From contig OY730476.1 of the NCBI GenBank assembly GCA_963422735.1, forward strand, positions 4,889,053 through 4,953,052: 64,000 nt of DNA, written 5' to 3'. Positions 770 through 61,249 of this stretch are shown piece after piece. This stretch comes from Candidatus Latescibacterota bacterium (GTDB taxonomy: Bacteria > Latescibacterota > UBA2968 > UBA8231). The position numbers and the translations under genes were made by a program. Numbering within the stretch: the first letter of the stretch is position 1; each line of letters starts with the position of its first letter. Under the pieces are notes generated by a model, which did no database searches, had not been told where the DNA came from, and saw only the letters and a list, made by a program, of their open reading frames with translations.

Positions 770-856
770 GTTCGCGTTTTTCTTAAACTTTATGGCATAG
801 CCCCGTGTGGTACTTCTTTCACCAATCGCACACTATTATCGTGCGGGTTGTAGCAG

Positions 857-1777
857 TCAGATCCGTTCTGAGGCGGGGCAGGATGAGATACCAGAGAAAG
901 TCTTATACGTAAAAAGCTCAAATAATATCCCACACAGCGCATAATGGTCCGTTTCTTGGGTGAATTGATCAAACCGCAAAATCTGCTCAACAGGCGCATA
1001 GGCAGGACTGAACTTCCCCGTTTTGTACTCTTTCTCCGCTGGGTGGGGATCTCCAGCCGTTACCGTCGTCTCGAAATCGACAAGCGTTACCCCTAGCTCG
1101 CTCAGACCAACAGAAAACGGATTTCGTGGACACACCATGACATTGCCGGGGTTAAGATCGAGAAAGACCTTGCCCTTAGCGTGTAACAAGCGGAGAGCCT
1201 CCGTCAGCTTGGCCGCTACCCACAACTTCATATCGAGGGTCAGTTCTTGCGGATACTGGTCTCTGCTAGGTATCAGATAGAACTTATGCAGGGACTTGCC
1301 TTCGACGAATTCGTACACGTAATACTGGATCTTGTAGCGAGTAGGGACTATGCCTTTGCAATAGTACTTAACCGCCACCCCCTTTTCGACGGGTTTCGCG
1401 AAACTTTCGTGTTCCAAGTCTCGGGCGACATTGAACTCATTGTCGCAAAAGGCCCTGTCGGCCAGCCGAGTCCGCGAACCTACTCTGTCCCCACTTTCTG
1501 TCTCTATATCGCCTAGGAGGCCGATATCTTGGCCCGGCAGGACGTATTTTACGAATACCTGCTTTCCCGTCAGGATATCTCGGGCCGCGAGGATATTAGA
1601 ACGGCTTGGAGAAGGCCGCTCGGGAGAGAGCCTGTATTTCCCGATCCGGCGAATTGGACGCCTCCTTGCTGGCACGACTCTCGGCTCGAGGACGCAGATA
1701 GGCATGCTGCGGAAAATCCACTTTGCACATTGGCGGATGTACCTGCTGATTTCCATGTTAGCCTCCTCTATGGGCAA
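857..1777 (-). CDS. Ser/Thr protein kinase-like protein with LanKC-like motifs
   Basis: VFVK, YEFVEG, HAKGKVFLDLNPGN, DFE, YAPVEQ and DHYAL kinase subdomain motifs. Confidence 0.75.
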   Translation of the reverse strand: MPIEEANMEISRYIRQCAKWIFRSMPICVLEPRVVPARRRPIRRIGKYRLSPERPSPSRSNILAARDILTGKQVFVKYVLPGQDIGLLGDIETESGDRVGSRTRLADRAFCDNEFNVARDLEHESFAKPVEKGVAVKYYCKGIVPTRYKIQYYVYEFVEGKSLHKFYLIPSRDQYPQELTLDMKLWVAAKLTEALRLLHAKGKVFLDLNPGNVMVCPRNPFSVGLSELGVTLVDFETTVTAGDPHPAEKEYKTGKFSPAYAPVEQILRFDQFTQETDHYALCGILFELFTYKTFSGISSCPASERI

Positions 1778-1803
1778 TCGCAGTAAGTTCTTGCGTGCAT
1801 CCG

Positions 1804-2484
1804 TTAGCGCGACGCATCAGCGACCACTCTTTTCGATGCACAGCCAGCCAAGAAACGGCGACGGCTCTCCTCTAGATCGTCGGCGTCTTGCTCGACCATC
1901 AAATCGCCGATGTACCCCGAACTATCGACGCAGAGCATGACACCATAGATTTCCCTCGATCCGAGCAATTGTAGTAACGATTCCGGCACGTGCTTCTTTT
2001 CTACCGTGACAGGTTTTCTTTTCGGAGCGTACGAGTTGCTTATTTCGAGCACCTTGATCAGGCTCTCTTCCCCTTCAAATGCGCCGATGTAGAGTGGCTC
2101 GTTCCCAATCCCCATATCGCTTTGCCCCGCGTACCAGTATCCAAACATATCGGCATAACAAGCACTGCATTTCGCCTTGTCGTCGAATAGCATAATTATA
2201 TCGCCGTCTCGCTGGATAAAATCTCCTAGGCGAACTACCTCTATTCCCTGTCGAATAGGCAACTCGCCCAAAGCTAGTCCCAGTACCTGCTCGCCCGCGA
2301 TTGCTAAGGCGACTTCCCTCTTTAACCCCTCAATCTCGTGCCGGCGCTCGTCCCTACCTTGGTTCTTGCCAACGAAGAAAGACATCCCTATGGCCAAGGT
2401 CGCTAGCAGCACAACGGCCAACCGTCTGATATGTCTCATAACTCGCTCCTTGTTGTTAGAATTAACCATTGTTCGCGATCCCAA
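1804..2484 (-). CDS. membrane-anchored protein, possible thioredoxin-like fold
   Basis: N-terminal hydrophobic helix; IIMLF..KCSAC CxxC motif after a beta strand. Confidence 0.5.
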   Translation of the reverse strand: MGSRTMVNSNNKERVMRHIRRLAVVLLATLAIGMSFFVGKNQGRDERRHEIEGLKREVALAIAGEQVLGLALGELPIRQGIEVVRLGDFIQRDGDIIMLFDDKAKCSACYADMFGYWYAGQSDMGIGNEPLYIGAFEGEESLIKVLEISNSYAPKRKPVTVEKKHVPESLLQLLGSREIYGVMLCVDSSGYIGDLMVEQDADDLEESRRRFLAGCASKRVVADASR

Positions 2485-2493
2485 ATCGCACTG

Positions 2494-2724
2494 TTAGGCA
2501 TCCGAGACTGCGATTCTGTACACCTTTACGACTGGATCGGCTAGGTTGCCAGAATCGTCGATGTAGGGCTTTTGCCGCATATAGAGCAGACCTTCGTCAG
2601 CAATGCCTACCAACCAGCCATAATCGGGATCAATGCGGCCGATTCGTCTGAATTGGTCGTCATATACCAGATAATAGCCGAATCCCTCACCTTCCTCCTT
2701 CATCTCTTCAGTCTCAGGAGCCAC
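2494..2724 (-). pseudogene. 3' remnant of a beta-propeller-like exported protein
   Basis: YYLVYD...GRI...GLLYM...PVVKVYRI C-terminus; in-frame TAA just upstream of the GTG. Confidence 0.35.
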
Positions 2725-2750
2725 GACGAGTACGAATTACCTTCCCGACA

Positions 2751-3044
2751 GGCCCGTCGCTACTGTCCGCTGATGATACAGAGGTGTCCGCTGGCGTACA
2801 CCGGAGAGCGGCTTCTGCGTCTGCTGAGGCTGTCCGCCATTATCGGTCGCGTACGCCCACAGCCGCGCGCCCTAGGCTCTATGGGATGTGTACGCCAACA
2901 CTCTGAACAGGAGACAACACCCTGCTAGATTTATTGACTTTAGGGTACGGACTGGTTATCAGTCTATCAGACAGAATGAGTCGAATTGCCATCCTCGCCG
3001 GCCCAGTGCTACTATCCGCTGGTGATACCCTACCGTCCGCTGGC
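2751..3044. repeat. two degenerate ~45-bp direct repeats (2751-2795, 3000-3044), each with two TCCGCTG units, plus an internal inverted repeat
   Basis: ggcccgtcgctactgtccgctgatgatacagaggtgtccgctggc vs ggcccagtgctactatccgctggtgataccctaccgtccgctggc; tggcgtacac (2792-2801) is the reverse complement of gtgtacgcca (2888-2897). Confidence 0.7.
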
Positions 3045-3129
3045 TTTGGAGGATGGTTAGCGAGAGCTAATGCCCGGATATGATGTTGCTAATGAACCGG
3101 AACTACTATATCGTATCAGGATATCGCGG

Positions 3130-3294
3130 GTGAGGCATCCAAAGAAGGAAATTGAGGAGGTGCTAGTAAGCGCAGAATCGGTAGGATGGACGGTCACGAC
3201 TACAAAATCTGGTCATCGGTGGGGTGTGATGCGATGTGCGGAATCCAGTCGTCCAGGATGTCAGTACTCTATCTGGTCCACACTTGGTGCGTAA
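3130..3294 (+). pseudogene. HicA-like toxin, truncated
   Basis: RHPKKEIEEVLVSAESVGWTV...SGHRWGVMRC...C.YSIWST followed by an early stop. Confidence 0.5.
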
Positions 3295-3331
3295 ATGCCC
3301 GCACAGGAGTAAGCCGTAAGGAGAACGCGAG

Positions 3332-3676
3332 ATGCAAATCTACCACTTTACGCCGATTGTCGAGGGGCCCGACATGCAGGATGAGGTCGTGATCGATGCG
3401 CTCTTCGAGAATGGCTGTGACGACGGAACGGTCGGCCGATCAGATGATGTTCAGTTTATCGTTTTCGACCGCGAAGCGGCGAGTCTTGTCGAGGCGGTGC
3501 GGTCGGCGATCGACGACATTGAGCTAAAGGTCGTTCAGACTGCCGGCACCGACTTGACTTCCAGTTGCGGCCTTACGGATCGCATCGAAGCAGAGCATTC
3601 CGAGATACATCGGTTCATAGCATCTACTAATGCGACCAGCGAAAAAAAGACGACCGGTGCCTCTGTGGAACACTAG
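3332..3676 (+). CDS. HicB-like antitoxin N-terminal domain, probably lacking the C-terminal HTH
   Basis: YHFT.IV...DALFENGCDDGTV...FDREAASLVEAVRSAIDDIE; follows the toxin-like ORF. Confidence 0.55.
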   Translation: MQIYHFTPIVEGPDMQDEVVIDALFENGCDDGTVGRSDDVQFIVFDREAASLVEAVRSAIDDIELKVVQTAGTDLTSSCGLTDRIEAEHSEIHRFIASTNATSEKKTTGASVEH

Positions 3677-3799
3677 GCCGAGTTCAAGCCTTCGACCGGG
3701 CCGATCTATTGTACAAATCTGTCAATCGCAGCGAACGAATCAACTCCTTAGCCGGCCCAGCACTACGGCCTGTCGGCGATATACCGGAGAGCAGCTCCC

Positions 3800-5175
3800 A
3801 TGTCTGCTGAGGCCGCCCGCATCCTCGTCGTGGACGACGACCAAGACATCCTCGTCGCCGTACGCTTGCTCCTCAAGCAGCAGGGCTACCAAGTCCGCAC
3901 CGAGACCGATCCCCAGGCCATTCCGAGTGCCCTCAAGCAGGAGTCGCCGGCAGTCGTCCTCCTCGACATGAACTTCACTCAAGAGGCAACCAGCGGCCGG
4001 GAGGGCTTCTACTGGCTCCAGCAAGTTCGCGAGCTGGACCCGACCGCCGTCGTCTTGCTGATCACCGCATACGGCGATGTCGAGATGGCCGTGCGCGCCA
4101 TCAAGGAGGGGGCCGTCGATTTTGTGCTCAAACCCTGGCAAAACGAGAAGCTGCTGGCCACGCTGTCCGCGGCCATGGAATTGCACCGCTCGCGCCGGGA
4201 AGCCCACCGCCTGCGCTCCCGCCAGCAGCGGCTGTCCGCGGACCTCGACCAGCCCTTTGGCGACCTCATCGGCGAGGCCCCAGTCCTACAGGAGGTTTTC
4301 CAGGCGACGGTCAAGGTGGCCGCCACCGACGCCAGCGTCCTCATCCTCGGCGAGAACGGCACGGGCAAAGAGCTGGTGGCGCGCGAGATACACCGCCGCT
4401 CGGCGCGCACCGGCGAAGTCTTCATCGCCGTCGATATGGGATCCCTGAGCGAGACCCTGTTTGAGAGCGAACTCTTCGGCCACGTCAAAGGGGCCTTCAC
4501 CGACGCCCGCAGCGACCGCGCTGGCCGCTTTGAAATTGCCTCCGGGGGCACCCTGTTCCTCGACGAGATTGGCAACCTGCCCCTAGCCTTGCAAGTCAAG
4601 CTGCTCGCGGCCCTGCAAAACCAGCAGGTCGTCCGCGTCGGTGCCAACCAACCCGTGCCCGTGGATGTGCGCCTTATATGCGCCACCAACCAACCCATCC
4701 ACGAAATGGCCACAGCCGGCACCTTCCGCCAAGACCTCCTCTACCGCATCAACACCGTGGAAATCCACCTGCCCCCCTGCGCGAGCGCCCCGAGGATATC
4801 GCGCTGTTGGCGCGTCACTTCCTCGACTTATACCGGACCAAGTACCGCAAGGCCCTGACCGGCCTGGCCGCCGAGACCCTCGCCCACTTGCGCGCATACG
4901 CTTGGCCGGGCAATGTGCGAGAATTGCAGCACGCAGTGGAGCGCGCCGTCATCATGAGCGAAGGGAACCGACTGACTGCCGACGATTTTCCCCTGACCGC
5001 GGCCCCAGCGTCTGGAGAAGCTATCGGCTTTGACAGCTATAACCTCGAAGACGTTGAGCGCGAGGTCATCGCTCGGGTGCTGCACAAGCGGCAAGGCAAC
5101 GTCAGCCAAACCGCACGGGAACTCGGACTGACTCGCACGGCCCCCTACCGCCGCATGGAGAAATATGGACTGTGA
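3800..5175 (+). pseudogene. sigma-54-dependent NtrC-family response regulator, single frameshift (may be a sequencing error)
   Basis: Receiver domain (VVDDD, LLDMN, KPW), AAA+ domain (GENGTGKE, GAFTDA, LFLDEIG). Frame shifts at the C6 run 4772-4777 (LPPLRER needs C7), then WPGNVREL and a Fis-type HTH. Confidence 0.9.
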
Positions 5176-20189: not shown

Positions 20190-21152
20190 ATGCCAGAACG
20201 CGTACAGATCGTAGTGCCCGGCGACAATCCAACTCAGATCGCTGGTTCGCCGCATTTGCAGCGGCTCGCTCCCTACGGGGATGTTTCTCTCTTCGAGGAT
20301 ACGCCGCAAAGTGCCGACGAGAAGATTGCGCGTACCGAGGGTGCGCAAATCATTATCAACACGCGCGGGGTCGTCACGTGGCGCGAGGAAATGCGTCGCT
20401 TGCCCGCGCTCAAAATGATTGCCACCTGCTCCATCGGCACGGACATGATCGACTTGGAGCTTGCCAAGGAACTCGGGGTCGTGGTGTCGAACCAGCCCGG
20501 CCGCACCGCGCCCGTGGTGGCCGAGCACATGTTCGGGCTGATGTTCGCCCTGTCCAAACGCGCCTATTTCCAGACCGCCGAGCTGAAGGCTGGCCGCTGG
20601 ACGCGCAAGATGAACACCATGCTGCAGGGCAAGGTGTTAGGCGTGGTCGGCACGGGTCCGATTGGCGCGGAGATGGCGCGATTGGGGCGGGCCCTCGGCA
20701 TGGAGGTCATCGCGTGGACCTTCCATCCGTCGCCTGAGCGCGCGGCCGAATATGGGGTGCGCTTCGTCGAGCTCGACGAGCTGTTGCAGGCAGCGGATGT
20801 GGTCAGCCTGCACGTGCGGTTGACCGAGGATACTCGGCACTTGCTCGGGACGCGCGAATTTGGCCTGATGAAGGAAGGGGCGCTGTTGTTGAACGGTGCA
20901 CGCGGCGATGTGCTGGACATCAACGCTTTGCGCGCTGCCTTGTTGGCCGGGCATTTGGGCGGGGCCGGGCTGGACGTGTTTCCCCAAGAGCCGCTGCCGA
21001 GCGACGATCCCATCCTCGATTGCGATCAGGTGGTGCTGACGCCGCATGCGGCGGATCAGACGCCCGAAGGGGTGAATTTGCTGAACGAGGGTGCGGTGGA
21101 TAATGTGATTGCGTTTTTGGAGGGGCGGCCGCGGAACAACGTGGCGGACTAG
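20190..21152 (+). CDS. D-isomer-specific 2-hydroxyacid dehydrogenase
   Basis: GTGPIG, SLHVRL, NGARG, LDVFPQEP, TPHAA. Confidence 0.9.
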   Translation: MPERVQIVVPGDNPTQIAGSPHLQRLAPYGDVSLFEDTPQSADEKIARTEGAQIIINTRGVVTWREEMRRLPALKMIATCSIGTDMIDLELAKELGVVVSNQPGRTAPVVAEHMFGLMFALSKRAYFQTAELKAGRWTRKMNTMLQGKVLGVVGTGPIGAEMARLGRALGMEVIAWTFHPSPERAAEYGVRFVELDELLQAADVVSLHVRLTEDTRHLLGTREFGLMKEGALLLNGARGDVLDINALRAALLAGHLGGAGLDVFPQEPLPSDDPILDCDQVVLTPHAADQTPEGVNLLNEGAVDNVIAFLEGRPRNNVAD

Positions 21153-21166
21153 TGCGAGGAGAGATT

Positions 21167-21877
21167 ATGGACGACGAGAAACAGCTAGAAAAAGAAAAAA
21201 AGGAATTTGCCGCGGCCATGGGGCACGATCCGTCCTTGACAACGGTGGATGATAAGGGGCGAACTGACCTGCACCATGCAGCAACATTGAACCTGCCCGC
21301 TCTGACTACATCCCTGCTGAAAAGCGGTATGGATGTCCACGCCAAGGACGAGGAAAAGATGACGCCGCTGCATATTGCGTCGATGCGGAATGCGGTTGCG
21401 GTTCCGAGGATTTTGCTGCACAGCGGGGCCGATGTCAACGCCAAGGACAAGGACGGCCTGACGCCGCTGCATATTGCGTCGATGCGGAATGCGATTGCGG
21501 GTGCGGAGTTTTTGCTCGACAAAGGGGCCTATATCAACGCGAAGAACTACTACAACGGCCTGACGCCGCTGCACATTGCGACGATGCGGAATGCGATTGC
21601 GGGTGCGAAGTTTTTGCTGCAGCACGGCGCAGATGTCGATGCGAAGAACTACCACGACGGCCTGACGCCGCTGCATATTGCGACGATGCGGAATATTTTT
21701 TACGTCGCCGAGCTTTTGCTGCAGCACGGGGCCGATGTCAACGCCAAGACCCGCGACGGCTGGACGCCGTTGTTTCTTGCCGTACACAAAAAAAATATGG
21801 TCAGTTCGTTGCTCCGTTTCCTTGGGCTGGAGACGAGGATGGTGCGTTTGTTGCGCCAGCATGGGGGCGAGGAATAA
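21167..21877 (+). CDS. ankyrin repeat protein (6 repeats)
   Basis: repeated TPLHIA...LL.HGADVNAK; SD gaggag before the ATG. Confidence 0.93.
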   Translation: MDDEKQLEKEKKEFAAAMGHDPSLTTVDDKGRTDLHHAATLNLPALTTSLLKSGMDVHAKDEEKMTPLHIASMRNAVAVPRILLHSGADVNAKDKDGLTPLHIASMRNAIAGAEFLLDKGAYINAKNYYNGLTPLHIATMRNAIAGAKFLLQHGADVDAKNYHDGLTPLHIATMRNIFYVAELLLQHGADVNAKTRDGWTPLFLAVHKKNMVSSLLRFLGLETRMVRLLRQHGGEE

Positions 21878-21893
21878 AACAGTTGGAGGACTT

Positions 21894-23684
21894 ATGAGTG
21901 AGGGACAACACCTCTTGGCGCTGCCGCAGGGGACGCGCATCCGGGACTTTGAGTTTCACCGCGTCCTCGGCCACGGCGGGTTTGGGCTTACCTATTTGGG
22001 GTGGAATGTCGCGCTGGATATTCCGGTGGCGATCAAGGAGTATCTGCCGGCGGACTTGGCTACCCGCAGAAGCGATCTGTCGGTGGTGCCGCAGTCGTCG
22101 CCGTCGTCATCGGATTTCCAATGGGGCTTGGAACGCTTCTTGGACGAAGCGCGCACGCTGGCGCGTTTCCAACATCCCCACATCGTCCGGGTCCATCACT
22201 TCTTTGAGGCGCATAGCACGGCGTATATCGCAATGGACTATGTGGAGGGGGAGGACTTGTCGGCGTATCTGGCGCGCAAAGGGACGCTGAGCGAAGCCGA
22301 ACTCAAGGGCATTCTGTATCCGTTGCTGAGTGCCTTAGCAGTGATCCATCGGGCTGATTTTCTGCATCGGGACATCAAGCCGGGCAATATCGTCCTTCGA
22401 GACGCAGACGGTTCGCCGGTGTTGCTGGACTTTGGTTCGGCGCGTCAGGCAGTCGGGGCTAAGAGCCGTTCGGTTACGTCGATAGTAACGCCGGGGTATG
22501 CGCCGATCGAGCAGTATTCGAGTCGGGGGCGTCAAGGGGCTTGGACAGACATTTATGCGTTGGGTGGGGTGTGTTATCGGGCGTTGACCGGGGATGTGCC
22601 CGACGATGCGACGGATAGGGTGCGGGAGGATCCGCTCGTTCCGGTATCTCGGCGGTGTGGGGGTCGGGTGAGTGGTTCGTTTTTGTCGGCGATTGATGCG
22701 GCGTTGTCGGTGGATGAGGGGGATCGTCCGCAGGGTGTTGAGGCTTGGCGGGAGGCGATGGAGTCGGATGGGGCGGCAGGGGAGGAACTGGCGGATGCTT
22801 CGGCGGAAACAGAGAAGGATGCTTCGGATGATGCGACACTCGTGGGGCGTAGTGATCAGGACGCGCCGCCACTGGATCGGCCGCAGAAGAAGACCCAACT
22901 CAAGCGGTTTGCCGTAGCCTTGGGGGTGGTTGCTTTCTTGGTTGGGGGCAAAATGTATGTTGATCATGCCGAGCAGGTGGCGTTGGATCGTCAGCGTGAG
23001 GAACAGGCGGCGTTAGAGCGTCAGCGTGAGGAACAGGCGGCATTGGATCGTCAGCGTGAGGAGCAGGCATTTGTCGCAGAGGTGGGGCGCACACCACATC
23101 CTAAGGGGATGAACAAGGGTAAGACTGACCTGCACATTGCAGCGGAATTGAACCTGCCCGTGCTGACTAGATCCCTGCTGGTACAGGGGGCGGATGTCCA
23201 CGCCAAAGACAACGTTGGCTTGACGCCGCTGCACTGGGCGGCGATGATGGATGCGTCTTTGACGGCGGAGTTGTTGCTGGCACAGGGGGCGGATATCCAC
23301 GCCAAAGACAACGATGGCCGGACGCCGCTGCACTATGCGGCGGATGCTTTTTCGACGGCGGAGTTGTTGCTGGCACAGGGGGCGGATGTCCACGCCAAAG
23401 ACAACGATGGCCGGACGCCGCTGCACTATGCGGCGATGATGGATGCGTCTTTGACGGCGGAGTTGTTGCTGGCTGAGGGGGCGGATATCCACGCCAAAAC
23501 CAACGTTGGCAGTACGCCGCTGCACTGGGCGGCGATGATGGATGCGTCTTTGACGGCGGAGTTGTTGCTGGCACAGGGGGCGGATGTCCACGCCAAAACC
23601 AACGTTGGCAGTACGCCGCTGCACTATGCGGCGGATGCTTTTTCGACGGCGGCGGTGTTGCGTCGTTATGGTGCCCGAAGGTGA
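21894..23684 (+). CDS. Hanks-type Ser/Thr kinase with TM helix, coiled-coil stalk and C-terminal ankyrin repeats
   Basis: LGHGGFGLTY, VAIKE, HRDIKPGN, DFG, TPGYAPIE; TM FAVALGVVAFLVGG; 6 ankyrin repeats. Confidence 0.95.
   Translation: MSEGQHLLALPQGTRIRDFEFHRVLGHGGFGLTYLGWNVALDIPVAIKEYLPADLATRRSDLSVVPQSSPSSSDFQWGLERFLDEARTLARFQHPHIVRVHHFFEAHSTAYIAMDYVEGEDLSAYLARKGTLSEAELKGILYPLLSALAVIHRADFLHRDIKPGNIVLRDADGSPVLLDFGSARQAVGAKSRSVTSIVTPGYAPIEQYSSRGRQGAWTDIYALGGVCYRALTGDVPDDATDRVREDPLVPVSRRCGGRVSGSFLSAIDAALSVDEGDRPQGVEAWREAMESDGAAGEELADASAETEKDASDDATLVGRSDQDAPPLDRPQKKTQLKRFAVALGVVAFLVGGKMYVDHAEQVALDRQREEQAALERQREEQAALDRQREEQAFVAEVGRTPHPKGMNKGKTDLHIAAELNLPVLTRSLLVQGADVHAKDNVGLTPLHWAAMMDASLTAELLLAQGADIHAKDNDGRTPLHYAADAFSTAELLLAQGADVHAKDNDGRTPLHYAAMMDASLTAELLLAEGADIHAKTNVGSTPLHWAAMMDASLTAELLLAQGADVHAKTNVGSTPLHYAADAFSTAAVLRRYGARR
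22974..23063 (+). repeat. 3 x 30-bp tandem repeat (QAALDRQREE)
   Basis: caggyggcgttrgakcgtcagcgtgaggar-like unit occurring three times. Confidence 0.9.
23190..23655 (+). repeat. near-identical 99-bp and 93-bp ankyrin-coding repeats
   Basis: recurrent ttgacggcggagttgttgctggcacagggggcggat...cacgccaaa blocks. Confidence 0.9.
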
Positions 23685-23699
23685 ACAATTGGAGATGCT

Positions 23700-23797
23700 G
23701 TGAGCGAAGAGCAATATCCTCTTCACGCCTTGCCCCAAGGAAGACGGCCGCGGTGGGTATGGGGGTCTTGGTTTTGATCGGCCTTCTTAGCTGTTGA
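23700..23797 (+). pseudogene. internally deleted relic of a paralogous receptor kinase gene
   Basis: GTG-SEEQYPLHALPQG resembles kinase start MSEGQHLLALPQG; upstream aacaattggag resembles aacagttggag; followed in another frame by TM-like AAVGMGVLVLIGLLSC*. Confidence 0.6.
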
Positions 23798-23825
23798 CGC
23801 CAGCCTGAACGTACACGGAGAGGTT

Positions 23826-25451
23826 ATGCTCAAACAATACCTATCTTTTATCGTGCATTTCGCCGTGGCTTGGTTCCTTTGCCCAAGTCCCGTCTCGGCG
23901 CAAATAGATGTGGATGTTGTTGCTGAAAGCATCGTGCGGGTTCGCGCTTATGACGATCACAAAGTCGTGGTTGAAGGGAGCGGTTTCGTCGTCAACGAAA
24001 AAGGATACGTGCTGACGAATGCCCATCTCCTAGCCAAGGCAGAGGGCTTGACCGTATGGTCCCTGAAGACTGGGGCCGAGGTTGTGGCGCAGCGGGTGTT
24101 TGCCAGCCGCGACATGAACTTGGCCCTGTTGCACGTACCGGGCTTGAACTTGCCGCCCCTCAGCTTATCCGAGCAAGGAGCCGATGTCGGCCGGGCCGTG
24201 CAGACGCTGCGATTCGGCGCAGCGGGGGATGTTCGGCTTTCTCGCGGGACGATAGGCACATACCAAGACGTCTTCGGCAAGAAATCAAGCCGTCCGGTGG
24301 CACACCTGCTCCAACACAATGCCTTGATAACGGCCCAAGCCTTCGGTATGCCCTTGTTCAACGAATGCGGGGATGTCGTCGCCATCAATCTGCCAGACCA
24401 AGGCAGCGGCTCGTGGCCGTTTCGGAAAGCGAAACCAAAAGGAGCCATTTTTGCCTTGCGCAGCGGCGACATCATAGCTGCACTCGAAGAGCGAGAAATC
24501 GCCCATACGGTGGTTGAGGCAGAATGCCTGAGTGCGGTTGAGCGCGCTGAACGCGATAGAAAAGCGGCCGCCGATAGCCTCAAGGTGGCTAAGGCGCAGG
24601 CCGACTCGGCAAGCAAAGCCGCAGAAAAGGCTAAGGCGCAAGCCGACTCGGCGAGCAAAGCCGCAGAAAAGACCAAGGCGCAGGCCGACTCGGCGAGCGA
24701 AGCCGCAGAAAAGGCCAAGGCCAAAGAGAAGGCCACGCGGCAGATGGCCGAACGGGAGAAAGCGCGGGCCGATTCCGCAAAGAAAGCAGTGGCCGACAGT
24801 CTCCAAGCGGCTAAGACCAAAGCCGATAGCCTGAAGATGGCCAAGGCACGAGCCGATTCCGCGAGTAAGGCGGCCGCCGACAGTCTCAAGGCGGCCAAGG
24901 CCAAAGCCGACAGCCTCCAAGCGGCCAAAGATCAGGCCGCGCAGCGGTTGAAGTGGGGTATTGCCGCAGGGGCGGGACTGGTGCTGCTCGCACTTTTCGG
25001 TTGGTGGCTTTCCTCGCGGCGGAAAAAGGAGCAATTACAGAGCGCCGAGTCCCGCTTGAGCGAAGCCGAACAAACGGCTGAAGCAGCGCGCCAAGCCGTG
25101 GCGAACGCACCGCAAGCCGCGCCTTTCAGATGTCTATTGGAAGGCCAAGACCGCACCGGCCGGCCATTCGCATTGACCATACCGGCATTGGTGTTGGGTG
25201 ATCGGGCCGGTGTGACGCTCGGGAGAAGCCCGGCCAGTGCCGAATTTATCATCGACCACGAAGAAGTCTCCCGCGAACACATCCGGCTTGCGTGTGCTGA
25301 CGGCGAACTCTACGCAGAGGATTTGAACGCCCTGAATAGCACAAAGTTGAATGGCCGCTTGCTCAACCCTCGCGAGCAGGTACTGTTGCAAAACAATGAT
25401 CGGCTTGAGATAGGGCCAGTCGTTTTTACTGTGCGTTTAGTTCAGGAGTGA
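23826..25451 (+). CDS. signal peptide + inactive trypsin-like domain + Ala/Lys coiled coil + TM + FHA domain
   Basis: GSGFVV...LTNAH retained; DLAL replaced by NLAL and GNSGGP by QAFGMP; ADS repeats; FHA LGR...VSREH...DLNALN. Confidence 0.88.
   Translation: MLKQYLSFIVHFAVAWFLCPSPVSAQIDVDVVAESIVRVRAYDDHKVVVEGSGFVVNEKGYVLTNAHLLAKAEGLTVWSLKTGAEVVAQRVFASRDMNLALLHVPGLNLPPLSLSEQGADVGRAVQTLRFGAAGDVRLSRGTIGTYQDVFGKKSSRPVAHLLQHNALITAQAFGMPLFNECGDVVAINLPDQGSGSWPFRKAKPKGAIFALRSGDIIAALEEREIAHTVVEAECLSAVERAERDRKAAADSLKVAKAQADSASKAAEKAKAQADSASKAAEKTKAQADSASEAAEKAKAKEKATRQMAEREKARADSAKKAVADSLQAAKTKADSLKMAKARADSASKAAADSLKAAKAKADSLQAAKDQAAQRLKWGIAAGAGLVLLALFGWWLSSRRKKEQLQSAESRLSEAEQTAEAARQAVANAPQAAPFRCLLEGQDRTGRPFALTIPALVLGDRAGVTLGRSPASAEFIIDHEEVSREHIRLACADGELYAEDLNALNSTKLNGRLLNPREQVLLQNNDRLEIGPVVFTVRLVQE
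24588..24725 (+). repeat. 3 x 42-bp tandem repeat (AKAQADSASKAAEK)
   Basis: aaggcgcargccgactcggcragcraagccgcagaaaag-like unit occurring three times. Confidence 0.85.
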
Positions 25452-25454
25452 ACA

Positions 25455-26720
25455 TTGCACAGCTTCAGGCGCTGGGGTCTCGTCTTTTTTCTTTTTGCGC
25501 TTCTGCTGCCGTGCCGCTCCGTTGCCGCGCCAGACTTTGACGCGCTTGAGAAGAGCGTGGTACGCATTGTAAGGCAAACCAACGAGGGGCTTGGTGCTGG
25601 CACTGGATTCGCCATAAATGACCAAGGCTATATTGCGACAAATGTCCACGTCATAGCCGACGCCAACTCGATCACAGCCATCCCAACAAACTCCAACGAG
25701 CTGTACGATGTGGAAGTAATCGCCACATCCCAAGAACTCGACCTCGCAATCGCCTATATCCCAGATATAACCCTGCCGCCCATCGCGTTTTCGCTCGCAC
25801 CAGCCATAAAAGGACAAAAGGTATGGTCCATAGGCTATCCTGGTGGGGCCGACCGCAACAGACCGGCTCACGACCCGACTGTGCAAGACGGCGTCATTGG
25901 AAGGGTTTTTTTGGGTGCGTGGCACGCGCAAGAACTCAGGATTATTCAGCACAATGCGCCGACCAATCCGGGCAACAGCGGCGGCCCTCTACTAGATGAT
26001 TGTAGCCGGGCAGTTGGCGTCAATACGCAGGCGTCTCTCGTCGTCATTAGCAGTCCATCCAGCGGGGTGACGCGGGTACCCCATGCGGCGGGCATTTACT
26101 GGTCTTCGCATATAGAGGAATTGGCAAACCTGTTGGACGGCCATGGCATTACTTTTCAATCAGAGCGCGACGATTGTGTGGCGGCTAGTGGCACGGGAAG
26201 TTCTGGCGAGGCCGAACAAGCGCGGGCGCAGGCAGAAGAAGCGAGCGATCAGTTTCTCTTCTGGCTGCTATTGTTGGGAGGTGTGGCCTTGGTCGCCTTG
26301 GTCGTTGCCTCGAAGAAGCCGCGCCAGCTCGTCCAGCAGATGAGTCGGCGCACAACCAAAAAGGAAGGGGTAGAAGTTGTTGCAAAAGGCCCAAACCACG
26401 GCCTCGTGCTGGCCGGTTTTGACGGTCGCGGCAACCGCATTTGCATTGAGTTGTCGCCGGCCCGATTTGCCGGTCAACGCTTGGGGCTTTCGCTCGGCAG
26501 GCATCCCGATTTGGTGGATGAAATTGTCGCGGATGAAAACGTATCGAGACGGCATCTGCGAATTGCAGCCGAGGGCGATCAACTTTACGTCGAAGATTTG
26601 AACTCCAGCAATGGGACATTTCTGAACGAGCAGCGCCTGTCGCCCTTTGAGCCGGCGCGGTTGGACTATGGTACCAAAGTCGCGCTGGGCGATTTGGTGC
26701 TCGTGGCGTCCAAACTTTAG
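25455..26720 (+). CDS. signal peptide + active trypsin-like serine protease + TM + FHA domain
   Basis: TNVHV, ELDLAI, NPGNSGGPL triad; TM; FHA LGRH...VSRRH...SSNGTFLN. Confidence 0.92.
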   Translation: MHSFRRWGLVFFLFALLLPCRSVAAPDFDALEKSVVRIVRQTNEGLGAGTGFAINDQGYIATNVHVIADANSITAIPTNSNELYDVEVIATSQELDLAIAYIPDITLPPIAFSLAPAIKGQKVWSIGYPGGADRNRPAHDPTVQDGVIGRVFLGAWHAQELRIIQHNAPTNPGNSGGPLLDDCSRAVGVNTQASLVVISSPSSGVTRVPHAAGIYWSSHIEELANLLDGHGITFQSERDDCVAASGTGSSGEAEQARAQAEEASDQFLFWLLLLGGVALVALVVASKKPRQLVQQMSRRTTKKEGVEVVAKGPNHGLVLAGFDGRGNRICIELSPARFAGQRLGLSLGRHPDLVDEIVADENVSRRHLRIAAEGDQLYVEDLNSSNGTFLNEQRLSPFEPARLDYGTKVALGDLVLVASKL

Positions 26721-26734
26721 ATGGGGTACTGGGC

Positions 26735-27571
26735 GTGAAAAAACGCAGCCGAGAGATCAACATCTTTAGCATGTCTGCGCTCGATCTGTTCGCATCGGCT
26801 CTCGGCGCGTTCATACTCATTACCATAGTGCTGCTGCCCTTTTTTCCAAATCTGAACATGTCGGGACAGGCAAAGGCTAAGCTGGCGCAGGCAAAGGCCG
26901 AATTGGCGCAGGCAAAGGCCGAATCAGAGCGGGTGAAGGCTAAGCTGGAGCGGGAGAAGGCCAAAGCTTCAAAAACAAAAGGTCAGCTTGAAAAACGGGT
27001 GAAGGCTTTGCAACAGGAGATAGACAACACAACCGTTTTATTGGGCATTGAGACGAAGGCGAAGAAGTTTGTGCTCGTCATAGATATGTCGGGCAGTATT
27101 TATCAGCCTCGACAGCAAGATTATCGTCAGTTCATAACATTGTCCATACAAGACATGCTCGCTGCTTTTAAGTCGGAAATAGAGGTCTGTCTCATTGGTT
27201 TTCAAGGCTCGAATCTGCTGCACTATTGGCCTCAAAATAGAGGTTACTTTCAAGTAGAAAGGAACACGCGAGATCGTGTTGTAGGACAGGTAAACGACTG
27301 GATGAGATTGGTGGATGGCGGCACGCCCACACGCGCCGCCTTGCTGGCGGCGATTGCACTGCACCCCGAAGAAATCATCCTGTTGAGCGATGGTGCGCCC
27401 TCAGAAGATTGGCGCATGGTCGTGCGGACTGTAACGGCTGAAAATAGGCGGAAAATACCCATACACGCCGTAGCTGTTGGCAATTACGTGGCAGACCGAA
27501 AATTTATTGACTTTCTAGTGCAGCTAACAGAGCGGAATAATGGGTCCGTTGTAGGAGCCAAACCAGGTTGA
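26735..27571 (+). CDS. ExbD/TolR/MotB-like N-terminal anchor + coiled coil + vWA domain
   Basis: REINIFSMSALDLFASALG TM with Asp; MIDAS motifs DMSGS, GGTPT, LSDG. Confidence 0.85.
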   Translation: MKKRSREINIFSMSALDLFASALGAFILITIVLLPFFPNLNMSGQAKAKLAQAKAELAQAKAESERVKAKLEREKAKASKTKGQLEKRVKALQQEIDNTTVLLGIETKAKKFVLVIDMSGSIYQPRQQDYRQFITLSIQDMLAAFKSEIEVCLIGFQGSNLLHYWPQNRGYFQVERNTRDRVVGQVNDWMRLVDGGTPTRAALLAAIALHPEEIILLSDGAPSEDWRMVVRTVTAENRRKIPIHAVAVGNYVADRKFIDFLVQLTERNNGSVVGAKPG

Positions 27572-27572
27572 T

Positions 27573-27941
27573 ATGAACAAGTCGAGATTTTCCGTGTACC
27601 GAATCGGTCGCGGCTCAGGTGTGGACATCCAGATTGACGATGATTCGGTCTCTCGCGCCCACGCCGAGTTAATTACAACGCACAGCGGCTCTTACTATCT
27701 CACCGACTGCGCCAGCAGCGGGGGTAGTTATGTGGCGAGGGACGGCGAGTGGAGATGCATCAGGCAAGAATTTATAAGCCCGACAGATGCGATTTTGCTC
27801 GGTCATTATCAGACGACCGCACCCGCACTTATCGCTATGGCCGCGCAAAGCAAGCGCCGTTTAGGAGGGGGGACATCCCTGCCCAAGGGACCAGTGCAGC
27901 GCAACATAGATACGGGCGAGATCATTGGCGAGGAGGATTGA
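27573..27941 (+). CDS. FHA domain protein
   Basis: IGRG...VSRAHA...DCASSGGSYV. Confidence 0.88.
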   Translation: MNKSRFSVYRIGRGSGVDIQIDDDSVSRAHAELITTHSGSYYLTDCASSGGSYVARDGEWRCIRQEFISPTDAILLGHYQTTAPALIAMAAQSKRRLGGGTSLPKGPVQRNIDTGEIIGEED

Positions 27942-27942
27942 C

Positions 27943-28728
27943 ATGGCAAAAGGGCAAGGGGTAGATATAGAGCAACGCCTAAAAGCAAGCGGCTTCAGCC
28001 TGTTAGGGGGCGTCATATCTATAGCGATTATGAGTTTTATTTTTGACCGTCCCGATTCTGCGGCGGGTGCTTTTCTGCTAGATCGCCACACGGATAATTT
28101 CCCCTACCCGTTTACGATCCAAAACGTCATGTGGCTTATGTTTTGGATCGGCTGCGGCGAGCTTTGGGTGCGATTCAACCAATCCAAGCTAGAAATGGAG
28201 CAGATGTCGAAACGCTATCTGCCGGAGGACGATGATGTTATGTTGCGGGCGCGGGATTTGGGTTCCTTTTATCAGAAGGTGCGGCCCATAGCGGAGGAGC
28301 GCACCTTCTTTTTACAGCGTCTGATCATGCGCTGTATTTTGCAGTTTCAGGGGAGCCACTCCGTCAATCAAGCCAACTCGCTATTGAATTCTTCTCTCGA
28401 ATTATTTCAGCACGAGCTCGAACTCAAATACGCGATGTTGCGCTATCTCGTATGGCTGATACCAACCTTGGGGTTTATCGGCACTGTGGTGGGCATTGCG
28501 TTCGCGTTGGACTATGCGGCCAACATTGAAGATCCACAGGATCCGACCTTGCTGGCCGAGATTACGGGTCGGCTGGGCGTCGCGTTTTACACGACCTTGC
28601 TCGCGTTGGTCCAATCGGCACTGCTGGTGTTTGCGCTGCACATTGTGCAAAGCCGGGAAGAGATGTCCCTAAACCAATCCGGCCAATACTGTTTGGACAA
28701 CTTAATCAACCGGCTTTACGAAAAATAA
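27943..28728 (+). CDS. MotA/TolQ/ExbB proton channel family protein
   Basis: IPTLGFIGTVVGI and LGVAFYTTLLAL helices. Confidence 0.92.
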   Translation: MAKGQGVDIEQRLKASGFSLLGGVISIAIMSFIFDRPDSAAGAFLLDRHTDNFPYPFTIQNVMWLMFWIGCGELWVRFNQSKLEMEQMSKRYLPEDDDVMLRARDLGSFYQKVRPIAEERTFFLQRLIMRCILQFQGSHSVNQANSLLNSSLELFQHELELKYAMLRYLVWLIPTLGFIGTVVGIAFALDYAANIEDPQDPTLLAEITGRLGVAFYTTLLALVQSALLVFALHIVQSREEMSLNQSGQYCLDNLINRLYEK

Positions 28729-28781
28729 GTTGCGGGCGAGACACCTGCGCTGCCGGAATAACTCAAAGATAGGAGGGCACC

Positions 28782-29429
28782 ATGCCTGTTTATCGCGGAC
28801 CCGATGGCAAAATCATTGAAGAGAAAACCGATAAGCGGAAAGAGGATACCAAACCAACGGACGTGGCCAACAGGCCGTTGCCGCCGGCACCACCGGGCGG
28901 CGAGCAACTCGCCGGGGAGGGGCGTTTAGATGCGCCCACGCAGCGGATGGGCGAAAGCCGGTCCAATGTCGGCGAGGAGGAAAGGACGCGCTTGGTAGGT
29001 GGGCGGCGGCGGCGAGAAGACGAGGAGCGTCGGCAGGAACGCGCCGAAGAGGATCGCGGCATGGATGATCCGGTTGTGGGGTGGTTGGTCGTTGTGGGGG
29101 GGCCGGGCAAAGGGCGGGCCGTGCAATTGGGTTATGGTTCCAATTCGGTTGGTCGCGGGGAGACCGATCGAATTAAGCTCGATTTTGGCGACGATCAGAT
29201 TTCGCGCAATAGCCATGCCGTTGTTACGTATGATCCGCGTGGCCGAAAATTTTACGTGCAACACGGCGGCGGCACCAATCTGACGTATCTCGCGGATCAG
29301 CCCGTGCTCGCACCGACTGAGTTGCCGGCGCTGACCCACATCGGTATCGGCAATACGATTCTCCGTTTCGTGCCCCTGTGCGGTGCCGAGTTTGATTGGC
29401 AGGATACAGAAGGAAGCGAAGCGCGATGA
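28782..29429 (+). CDS. FHA domain protein with disordered Thr-containing N-terminus
   Basis: PVVGWLVVVGGPGKG, VGRG, ISRNSH, GTNLTY. Confidence 0.9.
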   Translation: MPVYRGPDGKIIEEKTDKRKEDTKPTDVANRPLPPAPPGGEQLAGEGRLDAPTQRMGESRSNVGEEERTRLVGGRRRREDEERRQERAEEDRGMDDPVVGWLVVVGGPGKGRAVQLGYGSNSVGRGETDRIKLDFGDDQISRNSHAVVTYDPRGRKFYVQHGGGTNLTYLADQPVLAPTELPALTHIGIGNTILRFVPLCGAEFDWQDTEGSEAR

Positions 29430-30505
29430 ACGAATTAGACGGGCGCTTTGCCGCGCGGCAAATTCCCGGCAAACGGGAGTATCAAGAGGATGATTACGGC
29501 CTGCTGGATGGGCGCGATCTCGGCATAGATGGCAACGAGCACTCCATGTTGTTGGTCGCCGATGGCATGGGCGGCCACGTTGGCGGCGCGACTGCTAGCG
29601 GCCTTTTGATTAGGACCTTTGTCGAGGAGTATCCGCAGGCTTCCGGGCCAATCGTCGATCGGCTCCGAGACTGTCTCGAAGCGGCTAATAAAGCCATTGC
29701 CGATGCCATTGCCGAAAATCCCGCACTCGACGGCATGGGTTCGACCTTGGTCGCGGCGGTTGTTTCAAGCGAAGGGCTGAACTGGATCAGCGTGGGCGAC
29801 TCCCCGCTGTGGTTGTTCCGCGAGGGTAAATTGGAGCGTTTGAATGCAGACCACTCTATGGCTCCGGTTCTTGCGGATCTCGTGGCAATGGGGCGCATGA
29901 CCGCAGAGGAAGCCGCTCGGGATTCAAGTCGGCATTCGCTGCGCTCGGCGGTCATGGGCAATGACATACATCTGATTGACGCGTCGTCACAGCCGGTGGC
30001 GGTTGATAAGGGCGACCGGCTGCTATTGGCGAGCGATGGTTTGATGACCCTCAGCGATCAAGAGATCGCGGATATCCTCAAGAAAACGCAAGACGCGTCA
30101 TTGGAGGATAGCGCCGCGGCCCTTATCCAAGCTGTGGAAGCTGCCGAACATCTTCAACAGGACAATACGACCGTCTTGTTGTACACGCCGGAAGCTGGTG
30201 GGGATGCGGGATTAGCTGCGGCTGCTATTGGCGAGGGGGAAGATTTTCAGGATAAGCCGCGATTAAAACGAAAACGCAGGGGCAGACTGTTGAGGATGTT
30301 GCTATGCGTTGTCGTCTTATTGGGGGTGCTTTATTGGCTTAGGCAAGGCGAAAATGCGGCTGTTGAGCCGCCGGCGGCAGCTGCTGTGGGCACACTGGCT
30401 TCTCAGGAGGAGGCGACAGAGGACAGCATTCATGCGGGGGTAGAGGAAGCCGAGCTTAACGACCCGCGAGAAGAGGGTGTTGGGGTCGAGGGAGGGGAGA
30501 GGTGA
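29426..30505 (+). CDS. PP2C-family Ser/Thr phosphatase with C-terminal TM
   Basis: REYQED, VADGMGGH, GMGST, VGDS, DHS, ASDGL, QDNTT; TM LLCVVVLLGVLYWL. Confidence 0.94.
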   Translation: MNELDGRFAARQIPGKREYQEDDYGLLDGRDLGIDGNEHSMLLVADGMGGHVGGATASGLLIRTFVEEYPQASGPIVDRLRDCLEAANKAIADAIAENPALDGMGSTLVAAVVSSEGLNWISVGDSPLWLFREGKLERLNADHSMAPVLADLVAMGRMTAEEAARDSSRHSLRSAVMGNDIHLIDASSQPVAVDKGDRLLLASDGLMTLSDQEIADILKKTQDASLEDSAAALIQAVEAAEHLQQDNTTVLLYTPEAGGDAGLAAAAIGEGEDFQDKPRLKRKRRGRLLRMLLCVVVLLGVLYWLRQGENAAVEPPAAAAVGTLASQEEATEDSIHAGVEEAELNDPREEGVGVEGGER

Positions 30506-30523
30506 GAGCGCAGGGCGTCGTCG

Positions 30524-30733
30524 CTACGATATAAACGAGAGCGGCCATCCTGATGCCAGTAGGCTGGCCAGTAGCAAGCCAATCATCCAGCGGGTAGCTG
30601 CGCCGAGGCGGCGGCTCATTTCGTTAATGGCTCGCTCGATGCTTTCAAGGCGGCGGTCTAACTGCTCGACGACGCCTTCCAGCCGGCCAACGCGGCGGTC
30701 CAAGCTCTGTTCGTGGGACGTAGGGGAAGTTAT
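30524..30733 (-). CDS. small coiled-coil protein with C-terminal TM; ATA start or mutated start
   Basis: AGGAG-N6-ATA, then TSPTSHEQSLDRRVGRLEGVVEQLDRRLESIERAINEMSRRLGAATRWMIGLLLASLL...; absent from the ORF track. Confidence 0.6.
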   Translation of the reverse strand: MTSPTSHEQSLDRRVGRLEGVVEQLDRRLESIERAINEMSRRLGAATRWMIGLLLASLLASGWPLSFIS

Positions 30734-30841
30734 GATGCGCTCCTATAGATCGGGTTGGTCTCTAAATAGTATAATATAGGTATCTCGTATGGAGATACGA
30801 TGGCTTAGGCCCGCTACCAATCAACCAGATAAGGAGAAGCT

Positions 30842-33477: not shown

Positions 33478-33553
<76 letters not shown>

Positions 33554-61205: not shown

Positions 61206-61249
61206 TCAGTGTAACTTCTTGGTGGCATGGGAGGACTTTAGAAGCCTAT

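Follow-up and report, generated by a model that had tools for sequence, protein, structure and literature searches.

Several described systems come close to parts of the locus reported here. In PMC12204202 (Mol Biol Evol 2025), a TolQ-like gene, together with a transpore-helix-vWA (TPH-vWA) protein and without a tolR or exbD neighbour, was predicted to form a motor. The family was seeded from Idiomarina, TPH-vWA genes occur in 'heterologous pairs', and the available text of that paper discusses vWA adhesins and vWA force transducers. In the Agl-Glt system of Myxococcus, GltG carries an FHA domain and a transmembrane (TM) helix and is predicted to bind the AglR pentamer (PMC11761067). The T6SS (type VI secretion system) switch consists of PpkA, PppA and Fha1, which are a membrane kinase, a PP2C phosphatase and an FHA adaptor; assembly occurs locally after envelope damage, and the FGE-sulfatase protein TagR lies upstream in the switch (PMC13713981). 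A vWA-kinase-FHA-PP2C operon, DRA0331-0334, is described in Deinococcus (bioRxiv 10.64898/2026.01.23.701218). Herein, an operon of a Candidatus Latescibacterota bacterium is compared with these systems. It lies in contig OY730476.1, within the window, by which we mean the whole 64,000-nucleotide stretch of DNA that was analysed. We propose that the operon encodes an ion-driven motor of A and B subunits that would be gated by threonine phosphorylation and equipped with a tethered periplasmic protease pair; we judge this proposal about equally likely to prove right or wrong. The motor half was already predicted in 2025 (PMC12204202). What appears to be new is that the motor is joined to receptor kinases and PP2C, to a total of four FHA domains and to a protease/pseudoprotease pair.

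Nine open reading frames (ORFs) on the + strand span 21152-30505, with gaps of -4 to 141 nt between genes. Pfam assigns ankyrin, kinase plus ankyrin, two Trypsin_2...FHA architectures, a weak vWA, FHA, MotA_ExbB, FHA and PP2C to these nine ORFs. This agrees with the first-pass annotation, which had described nine co-oriented, closely spaced genes with the same domains; only the vWA domain falls just under its threshold. The features are as follows.

21152..21877 (ATG at 21167), + strand: ankyrin-only ORF (Ank_2, E 3.4e-47)
21894..23684, + strand: receptor Ser/Thr kinase with kinase domain, one TM segment, short coiled coil and ankyrin repeats (Pkinase, E 1.5e-35; Ank_2, E 2.7e-48)
23826..25451, + strand: dead HtrA-like domain, Ala/Lys-rich helical stalk, TM segment and FHA domain (Trypsin_2, E 1.9e-16; FHA, E 1.6e-13)
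25455..26720, + strand: HtrA/DegS/MarP-like protease domain (H-D-S), TM segment and FHA domain (Trypsin_2, E 1.4e-26; FHA, E 7.4e-16)
26735..27571, + strand: anchor, candidate motor B subunit, with Asp17 helix, coiled coil and vWA (vWA, 23.5 bits)
27573..27941, + strand: small FHA protein (FHA, E 9.8e-12)
27943..28728, + strand: MotA/TolQ/ExbB-family protein of 261 aa, candidate motor A subunit (PF01618, 41.5 bits against a cut-off of 22.9)
28782..29429, + strand: long FHA protein (FHA, E 3.1e-6)
29426..30505 (ORF opens at 29396, ATG at 29426), + strand: PP2C with C-terminal TM segment (PP2C_2, E 3e-9)

The genes are tightly packed. Gaps of 3, 14 and 1 nt separate the dead protease, active protease, anchor and small FHA genes, the TGA stop of the small FHA gene is parted by a single base (c) from the ATG that opens the MotA-like gene, and an ATGA overlap couples the stop of the long FHA gene to the PP2C start. 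Across 24999-30505 the window is identical to an 8,654-nt contig from a DNA run, which confirms the assembly there. No RNA run is listed as containing the 9.35-kb stretch; contigs of about 200 nt from one run, which is RNA only by guess, fall in 17 of its 30 bins. The promoter scan of the operon gave 5 promoter-like sites against 4.6 expected, and terminator-like sites lie mostly within repeats. By hydropathy, one membrane segment each was found in the kinase (residues 339-357), the dead protease paralogue (378-396), the active paralogue (267-285, in addition to a signal-like segment at 7-25), the vWA protein (18-36) and PP2C (297-315 of the long ORF); the ankyrin-only ORF and the two FHA-only proteins have no such segment. 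From the positive-inside rule and the general analogy to ExbD/MotB, the kinase, PP2C and the four FHA domains are predicted to be cytoplasmic, and the kinase ankyrin repeats, both protease-like domains and the vWA domain extracytoplasmic.

Relatives of the A protein were collected by a scan of one genome per species, in which 584 pattern matches were obtained and 543 of them encode a relative. The best 80 of the 543 were fetched with up to 10 kb per side, and components were detected by tblastn of the nine window proteins against these 80 loci. All counts out of 60 refer to the loci among the best 80 with full 10-kb flanks. They are lower bounds, since tblastn with the window proteins overlooks diverged components, and kin loci among the 60 are not independent. 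The kinase and the long FHA protein were each found in 59/60 full loci, the anchor helix in 57/60 (within 10 kb of the A gene), PP2C in 56/60, the C-terminal FHA of the protease-like proteins in 53-54/60 and the small FHA protein in 44/60. All seven component classes were present in 33/60.

Synteny is kept within two blocks: one is [protease-like, protease, anchor] and the other is [small FHA, A, long FHA, PP2C]; the kinases are variable in number and place. The blocks stand in one order in Latescibacterota-labelled loci and in the reverse order in Gammaproteobacteria- and Binatia-labelled loci. When the other ORFs were clustered, no further family was shared by more than 15 of the 80 loci, kinases and anchors aside, and on this ground eight families are taken to be the system. 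The conservation across phyla indicates that the cluster is beyond chance. Of the nine ORFs, eight are assigned to a membrane system of several genes that are conserved together. The neighbourhood search, with co-occurrence in the 60 full loci and two blocks kept across phyla, bears out the suggestion of the first-pass annotation that the genes are one unit.

The PF01618 match of the A protein, well above the cut-off in the window, reached 43 bits in the genome search, also above the cut-off. Identity across phyla is 57-86%, and 64 columns are invariant among 35 sequences, including the C-terminal GQYCLDNLINRLYEK. The family is large, with 2,953 cluster representatives at E <= 1e-5 among 4,388 candidates, and when 1.84 billion representatives were searched without filters, 196 clusters (50% level) were obtained at E <= 1e-30; for the homologue P0042, the Protein Atlas gave MotA/ExbB clusters only. 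Three strong hydrophobic segments are found by hydropathy, and a weaker fourth, at about residues 66-84, was read from the sequence. P174, G177, G180, T181, T217 and T218 are invariant in the 35 sequences, and the last two helices align with PAMGMIGT and LLTT of PomA (P-x-x-G-x-x-GT and TT). In PomA, the residues of this Pro/Gly/Thr pattern are functional and line the pore.

Nowhere in the locus is conservation higher than in the first 40 residues of the anchor. The helix motif ...ALDLFASALG..., with its Asp (Asp17), is present in 72/72 anchor ORFs from 69 loci, and the anchor adjoins A in several gene orders. MotB, ExbD and TolR use an Asp in the N-terminal helix for ion coupling. A search restricted to this region returned 1,176 cluster representatives, all unnamed or 'hypothetical'. 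The ZorB (MotB-like) profile of PADLOC matches weakly over the anchor helix, at E 0.003 in the window and E 2.8e-4 in a distant orthologue. A canonical ExbD/MotB partner of A is missing. The window's own genome has six MotA_ExbB genes, of which four have one or two adjacent ExbD genes and the A gene of the window has none; in a test of limited sensitivity, the seven ExbD paralogues of this genome gave no match in the 80 loci at E <= 1e-3. These data agree with the ExbD-like anchor proposed in the first-pass annotation. Because the Asp helix occurs in every anchor ORF and an ExbD-like gene was not found in the loci, A and the anchor most likely form an ion-driven motor of the 5:2 type, in which B would end in a vWA or a beta-rich domain. 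At the level of sequence, the pair agrees with a 5:2 motor in all features but one, the periplasmic domain that B usually has.

In the anchor, neither an OmpA-like peptidoglycan-binding domain nor an ExbD-type periplasmic domain was found by Pfam; only a coiled coil and a vWA domain at 23.5 bits, under the threshold of 23.8, are seen. A single anchor sequence gave nothing meaningful against solved structures. When 21 anchors are combined in a profile, solved vWA domains are matched (SpaC 6e-5, 4rck 1e-4, ITIH4 3e-4, BatB 0.0066), the sequence DMSGS...GGT...SDG follows the order of the metal ion-dependent adhesion site (DxSxS...T...D), and close homologues carry precomputed PF00092/PF13768 matches. 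With the window query, a vWA domain is recognisable in 27/60 full loci. Beyond the coiled coil, the anchors are of two kinds: vWA-like (41 by motif, plus five of six 'other' anchors on reading) and beta-rich (21 plus one), the latter with a D[VI]DLH[VI] motif. Homology between the two kinds is confined to the helix and the coiled coil (hhalign probability 99.9, columns 1-122). No Pfam or PDB relative of the beta-rich head was found; against solved structures, the profile of the beta-rich anchors reached nothing but coiled-coil proteins, ATP synthase subunit b among them. Of the motor-vWA module in the first-pass annotation, the Asp-helix anchor beside A stands, and the vWA head does not define it, being replaced by a beta-rich domain in about one third of the anchors.

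One of the closest described systems is the predicted TPH-vWA motor. As far as it can be likened by description, it also has a MotA/TolQ-family gene without tolR/exbD beside a tethered vWA protein with an Asp helix (PMC12204202). Its 'heterologous pairs' may be comparable to the two tandem anchors in loci L048, L049 and L081; the window has a single anchor, and the vWA head is replaceable in the system described here. No FHA, PP2C or protease partners are described in PMC12204202, whose main text lacks the word 'kinase' and has 'FHA' only within FhaC. With ExbBD-TonB and TolQRA, the locus shares a PF01618 A subunit and a B-type helix with Asp. It differs in four rather than three hydrophobic segments in A and in the absence of ExbD, TonB and TolA, and the best match to the ExbB paralogues of its own genome is E 0.002. 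Zorya likewise has a non-flagellar MotAB-like pair, ZorAB, and weak matches to the ZorA/ZorB core profiles were seen in two distant orthologues; all Zor matches in PADLOC, that of the window included, are weak core matches at E 1e-5 to 3e-3. However, the A protein has 261 aa without the long cytoplasmic tail of ZorA, whose profiles have 505-631 positions, ZorC, ZorD and ZorE are absent, and B has no peptidoglycan-binding domain by Pfam.

The phosphorylation components retain their catalytic motifs. The kinase translation shows VAIK, HRD and DFG, and the PP2C translation shows DGMGG, SDG and DN, with a profile match of the Stp1/IreP type at E 3.2e-41. The kinase ectodomains vary: ankyrin in the window; two FGE-sulfatase domains plus PG_binding_1, Sel1 repeats, TM2 or PEGA in other loci; and PDZ and PAN in the Rhizobium locus. 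Many loci carry several paralogous kinases. This indicates a conserved kinase domain with interchangeable ectodomains. The ankyrin ectodomain proposed as the sensor by the first-pass annotation is therefore not a defining feature, since ankyrin is found in 25/60 full loci and other kinase ectodomains occur elsewhere. Residues 387-592 of the neighbouring kinase align collinearly with the ankyrin-only ORF (48% identity across 211 aa, E 2e-51), and this ORF is without an export signal; on these grounds it is probably a kinase-less remnant of a second receptor kinase. A similar kinase-less kinase-ankyrin remnant is found at the same site in genome G143.

Two observations concern the kinase repeats. 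In the window, 23040-23640 contains near-identical internal repeats in the ankyrin part of the kinase, with one stem-loop-like 19-mer at 23325 and 23616. Public DNA contigs break and vary across these repeats, and the ankyrin repeat number may differ between strains. In a Vicinamibacteria-labelled locus (L069:14940-20567, +), a 1,875-aa kinase with dozens of C-terminal ankyrin-repeat matches adjoins the system, and locus L082 is similar.

The Gly-Arg and Ser-x-x-His positions are kept in all four FHA domains. Among 22 sequences of the small FHA protein, G12, R13, S27 and H30 are invariant and T114 is nearly invariant, and the C-terminal tail is a conserved LPxGPVRRNPxTGEII. The long FHA protein gives a match to an FhaB/FipA-type profile at E 5.7e-13. 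In an alignment of 22 sequences, its N-terminal peptide MPVYRxPDGxIIEExT is conserved, two more Thr are kept in at least 90% of the sequences within a variable, disordered region, and the C-terminus is a conserved FVPLCGxxFDW. In most sequences a hydrophobic residue stands at +3 of each of these Thr. FHA domains prefer phosphothreonine with a hydrophobic residue at +3, and for this reason the four conserved Thr motifs of the two soluble FHA proteins would be natural candidate FHA ligands.

The small FHA tail GPVRRNPxTGEII (window 27870-27941) resembles the long FHA head MPVYRxPDGxII (28782-28830), with Thr in one and Asp in the other. The strict pattern is found in 5/58 tails and 40/77 heads and a looser one in 24/58 and 57/77, against 8 matches in a background of 538,076 residues. 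This likeness is no more than suggestive. It could be speculated that tail and head are two ligands of one site, one of them phosphorylation-dependent.

The two ectodomain-TM-FHA proteins differ in their catalytic residues. In the alignment, the triad columns of the first paralogue are H-N-F and those of the second H-D-S, and BLASTP sets AQAFGMP of the first against PGNSGGP of the second; the call of the first-pass annotation that the first paralogue is a pseudo-trypsin is confirmed. The translation of this dead paralogue also shows a long Ala/Lys-rich helix. The active domain is related to HtrA/DegS/MarP proteases (E 1e-17 to 3e-13; PDB relatives Deg1 1.3e-17, DegP and MarP-type 3k6z 3.3e-13), which are likewise membrane-tethered and periplasmic. 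The differences are a cytoplasmic FHA domain, an obligate-looking dead paralogue and the absence of PDZ, which Pfam did not find in either protease-like protein; NCBIfam HtrA-type scores are far under their cut-offs.

In an alignment of 98 ectodomain-TM-FHA rows (96 from the loci and 2 from the window), 40 rows have H-D-S and the rest lack the Ser, often with more positions lost. The Ser-less paralogue recurs across phyla and usually lies upstream of the active one. Both forms were found in 27 of the 60 full loci, the dead form only in 19, the active form only in 4 and neither in 10. The active protease occurs in 31/44 loci with a small FHA gene and 0/16 without one, a correlation weakened by kinship and by missed detections. 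With the active form in 31/60 full loci only, the protease is accessory output rather than core. The extracytoplasmic protease that the first-pass annotation placed at the output is thus present in the window with an intact triad, and it is not a general part of the system. In the Rhizobium locus, the TM-FHA slot holds a 500-aa protein with a C-terminal FHA and an ectodomain without assignment, which suggests that the heads of the TM-FHA proteins are exchangeable too.

Two further gene types were observed near such loci. On the Rhizobium leguminosarum replicon pRlBT01d, a 1,610-aa ORF without a Pfam match (L091:14063-18895, +) separates the anchor gene from the gene for the ectodomain-TM-FHA protein. 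Collagen-repeat and leucine-rich-repeat arrays, 81 ORFs in 15 loci (L031, L035, L037, L038, L041, L043, L057 and 8 others), lie upstream, for example at L038:5104-6327, and the system that they adjoin is a reduced variant from which the small FHA gene and the active protease are missing.

From these components, the following working is proposed. A periplasmic or surface cue would activate the kinase, which would phosphorylate the conserved Thr motifs on the two soluble FHA proteins and probably also the kinases themselves. Contacts between FHA domains and phosphothreonine would then bring the motor together or unlock it, and the TM-FHA protease pair would dock on A/B, as is predicted for GltG on AglR. 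Ion-driven movement would be applied in the periplasm through the protease stalks and through the periplasmic end of B, a coiled coil with a putative ligand-binding head that is vWA here and beta-rich in other lineages. PP2C would erase the phosphothreonine and reset the system. Possible tasks of such a motor are periplasmic or surface target processing, adhesion, envelope repair and defence. We infer the stoichiometry, the phosphorylation targets, the FHA-site pairings and the biological output of the system. The earlier interpretation is partly supported overall, and the chain from kinase through FHA adaptors to protease is one that we infer.

A bolder version of this proposal would place the operon in an undescribed class of 5:2 motors beside flagellar stators, Ton/Tol, Agl-Glt, GldLM and Zorya, namely a phosphothreonine-gated, ion-powered 'mechano-protease'. 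The motor would power work in the periplasm free of ATP, with the head gripping a target and the tethered protease, together with its dead partner, processing it; receptor kinases with swappable ectodomains would set when and where assembly occurs. This version is doubtful.

Several findings weigh against the phosphorylation-gated motor. The full component set is limited to the 33 loci given above, with the small FHA protein missing in 16 and the active protease in 29 of the 60; the full circuit is therefore not obligatory. Pfam finds neither an ExbD nor a MotB domain in the anchor, and the A profile reaches only PomA among solved structures, at E 0.38. A fusion search among longer A relatives passed three at E 1e-20 (P0241, P0018 and P0242), and the fusion evidence amounts to only one read-through, P0241, in which A continues into the long FHA protein on a single contig, and one frameshifted product, P0018. 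The system is also missing from 14/30 other genomes of the genus, and it is dispensable, as congener sites that are empty or hold PP2C remnants show.

The distribution of the system bears on an anti-phage or abortive-infection role, which would follow a Zorya-like logic: an envelope breach would be sensed by the motor and the kinase ectodomains, and proteolysis or dissipation of the membrane potential would follow. The presence is patchy, in 35/168 genomes of the phylum, all of them from three families of a single class, and in 16/30 other genomes of the genus, with up to 3 copies in one genome. Among the labels of the carriers are Latescibacterota, Pseudomonadota, Acidobacteriota, Binatota and Rhodothermota. 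On a quick tree, carriers with one phylum label tend to group, but 12 label changes are required where 6 would be the minimum, which makes some transfer between phyla likely. The presence/absence polymorphism seen at a single chromosomal site would fit defence as well. Five single-contig congeners without the A gene retain the flanks (window 21148-30830 against L092-L096). The site is empty in G008, where the flanks are about 50 bp apart; G144, G009 and G021 hold the PP2C catalytic domain only, and G143 holds PP2C and the kinase-less piece mentioned above. The PP2C catalytic domain is the longest-surviving part at these sites, and the pattern is read as loss by deletion rather than mobile insertion.

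The other points for an anti-phage role are the weak ZorA/ZorB matches, the variable sensor ectodomains, and the resemblance of the kinase to mad6/PD-T4-6 kinases and of the protease to the RT-Protease_XI protease in PADLOC. However, the PADLOC check called for in the first-pass annotation gave no system-level match, and the kinase and protease matches are to generic domains. The neighbours, among them polyphosphate kinase, IspH and MnmG, have housekeeping or metabolic functions, and the site is fixed in the genus, with two downstream genes common to 7 carrier congeners. No relative of A was found in 50,697 phage records or in viral contigs, and one of 72,556 plasmids has a relative, the 1.33-Mb conjugative Rhizobium leguminosarum replicon (pRlBT01d, L091). 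The conservation of A, at 57-86% identity across phyla, is unusually high, and no nuclease, NADase or other usual effector is present. We hold an anti-phage role to be quite unlikely.

A mobile-element or prophage origin was also considered and is rejected on the absence of phage and viral relatives, the site common to congeners and the housekeeping neighbours. A tRNA-Thr (TGT) gene lies at 33478-33553 (+), 3 kb downstream of the operon, and is the sole RNA family match in the window; the conservation of the operon flanks among congeners argues against its being an island boundary.

A machine of the Agl-Glt/Tol type that serves adhesion, surface motility or host contact is, in our view, rather improbable. 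In such a machine the motor would pull on an outer-membrane or surface ligand through the vWA head, the TM-FHA proteins would be transducers similar to TolA/GltG, and the proteases would only trim or release the adhesin. The precedent is GltG, with FHA and TM helix on a TolQ-like pentamer (PMC11761067): Agl-Glt (AglRQS, GltG) and the present locus both combine a TolQ/TolR-type motor with single-pass proteins that have a cytoplasmic FHA next to the TM segment and a long periplasmic extension. The vWA adhesins and force transducers in PMC12204202, the match of the vWA profile to the pilus tip adhesin SpaC, and the eukaryote-like repeats in kinase ectodomains or neighbours (Ank, Sel1, and the collagen and leucine-rich-repeat arrays in 15 loci) point the same way, and the loci with a reliable label all come from diderm phyla. 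Against this, no conserved outer-membrane or Glt-like gene accompanies the core, with non-core clusters in at most 15/80 loci, the vWA head is not universal, and Pfam finds no TonB/TolA-type C-terminal domain. Compared with Agl-Glt, the locus lacks Glt outer-membrane or periplasmic components and a TonB-C-like domain, has protease-like heads, shows a reversed topology (ectodomain N-terminal, FHA C-terminal) and has a dedicated kinase and PP2C. The NCBIfam GltG match covers the FHA domain only, at 16.5-20.7 bits against a cut-off of 650.

Signalling and transport genes that are adjacent but functionally unrelated are a hardly credible explanation. Kinases, FHA proteins and PP2C are common, and the full set is found in just over half of the full loci; nevertheless, the families remain together in two permuted blocks across at least six phylum labels and their stops and starts overlap or nearly abut, so the conservation data contradict this reading. 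The probability of an accessory Thr-phosphorylation module of a T6SS or a type III secretion system is close to nil: the combination of kinase, PP2C and FHA is that of the T6SS switch, FGE-sulfatase domains occur in TagR (PMC13713981) and on some kinases here, and TagH-type and YscD-type FHA matches are weak, but PF05943 (VipB/TssC) has no match in the window's own 95%-complete single-contig genome, for which the role is rejected, and no secretion gene lies in the operon or among the conserved neighbours of the 80 loci.

The T6SS pathway nevertheless shows how a membrane Hanks kinase with a periplasmic domain, PP2C and FHA can gate a membrane machine (PMC13713981). In the present system, the gated machine would be a MotA-like motor instead, with four FHA domains rather than one. 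Two statements of the first-pass annotation are upheld by these searches: Pfam finds no TonB/TolA, flagellar or T6SS genes in the operon, with no T6SS sheath gene in the genome, and the known T6SS phosphorylation accessory locus, named there as an alternative, is not matched. The Deinococcus operon DRA0331-0334 clusters four of the same domain families without a motor, as far as the available text of the preprint describes (bioRxiv 10.64898/2026.01.23.701218). In contrast, the vWA domain here is fused to a transpore helix and extracytoplasmic by predicted topology, and would therefore not be a direct FHA partner.

By gene content, the system is judged to be neither a T6SS accessory nor Zorya, Agl-Glt or HtrA proper. 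The coupling of FHA, kinase, PP2C and protease to a motor was not found in the literature covered, with subscription journals and supplements outside that scope; the supplements or neighbourhood figure of PMC12204202 might show kinase or FHA neighbours. The gene set is absent from the available texts of PMC12505986, PMC7159879 and the Deinococcus preprint (bioRxiv 10.64898/2026.01.23.701218). The description of an undescribed system therefore applies to the switch and protease coupling and not to the motor, since a TolQ-like plus TPH-vWA motor was predicted before (PMC12204202).

Other features of the window lie outside the operon. At 49579-51993 (-), an 804-aa ORF contains LNT_N, CN_hydrolase and a complete TatC, either as an Lnt-TatC fusion or as two genes read through in frame. 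The window ends at 1-4000 and 60001-64000 have a G+C content of 0.51-0.54 and 0.46-0.50, against about 0.60 elsewhere. The gene at 59277-61205 (+) encodes a protein that carries the C-terminal sorting domain of type IX secretion (Por_Secre_tail, E 1.8e-11); from this protein, the source organism probably has a type IX secretion system and hence another non-flagellar motor.

Ion-driven 5:2 motors power only a handful of known processes, and each new coupling (Zorya, GldLM, Agl-Glt) has altered the understanding of envelope energetics. The motor-like pair described here is genetically locked to a eukaryote-like phosphothreonine switch, often with a protease/pseudoprotease pair. The system is directly testable, as a homologous locus lies on a replicon of a cultured Rhizobium leguminosarum strain, and the sequence names the mutational targets: the Asp of B, the Lys of the kinase, the Ser of the protease, the conserved Thr motifs, and the Arg and Ser of the FHA domains. 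If the proposal is true, the assembly or the activity of a motor would be set by reversible threonine phosphorylation, and this would provide a route to regulated mechanical or proteolytic work outside the cytoplasm.

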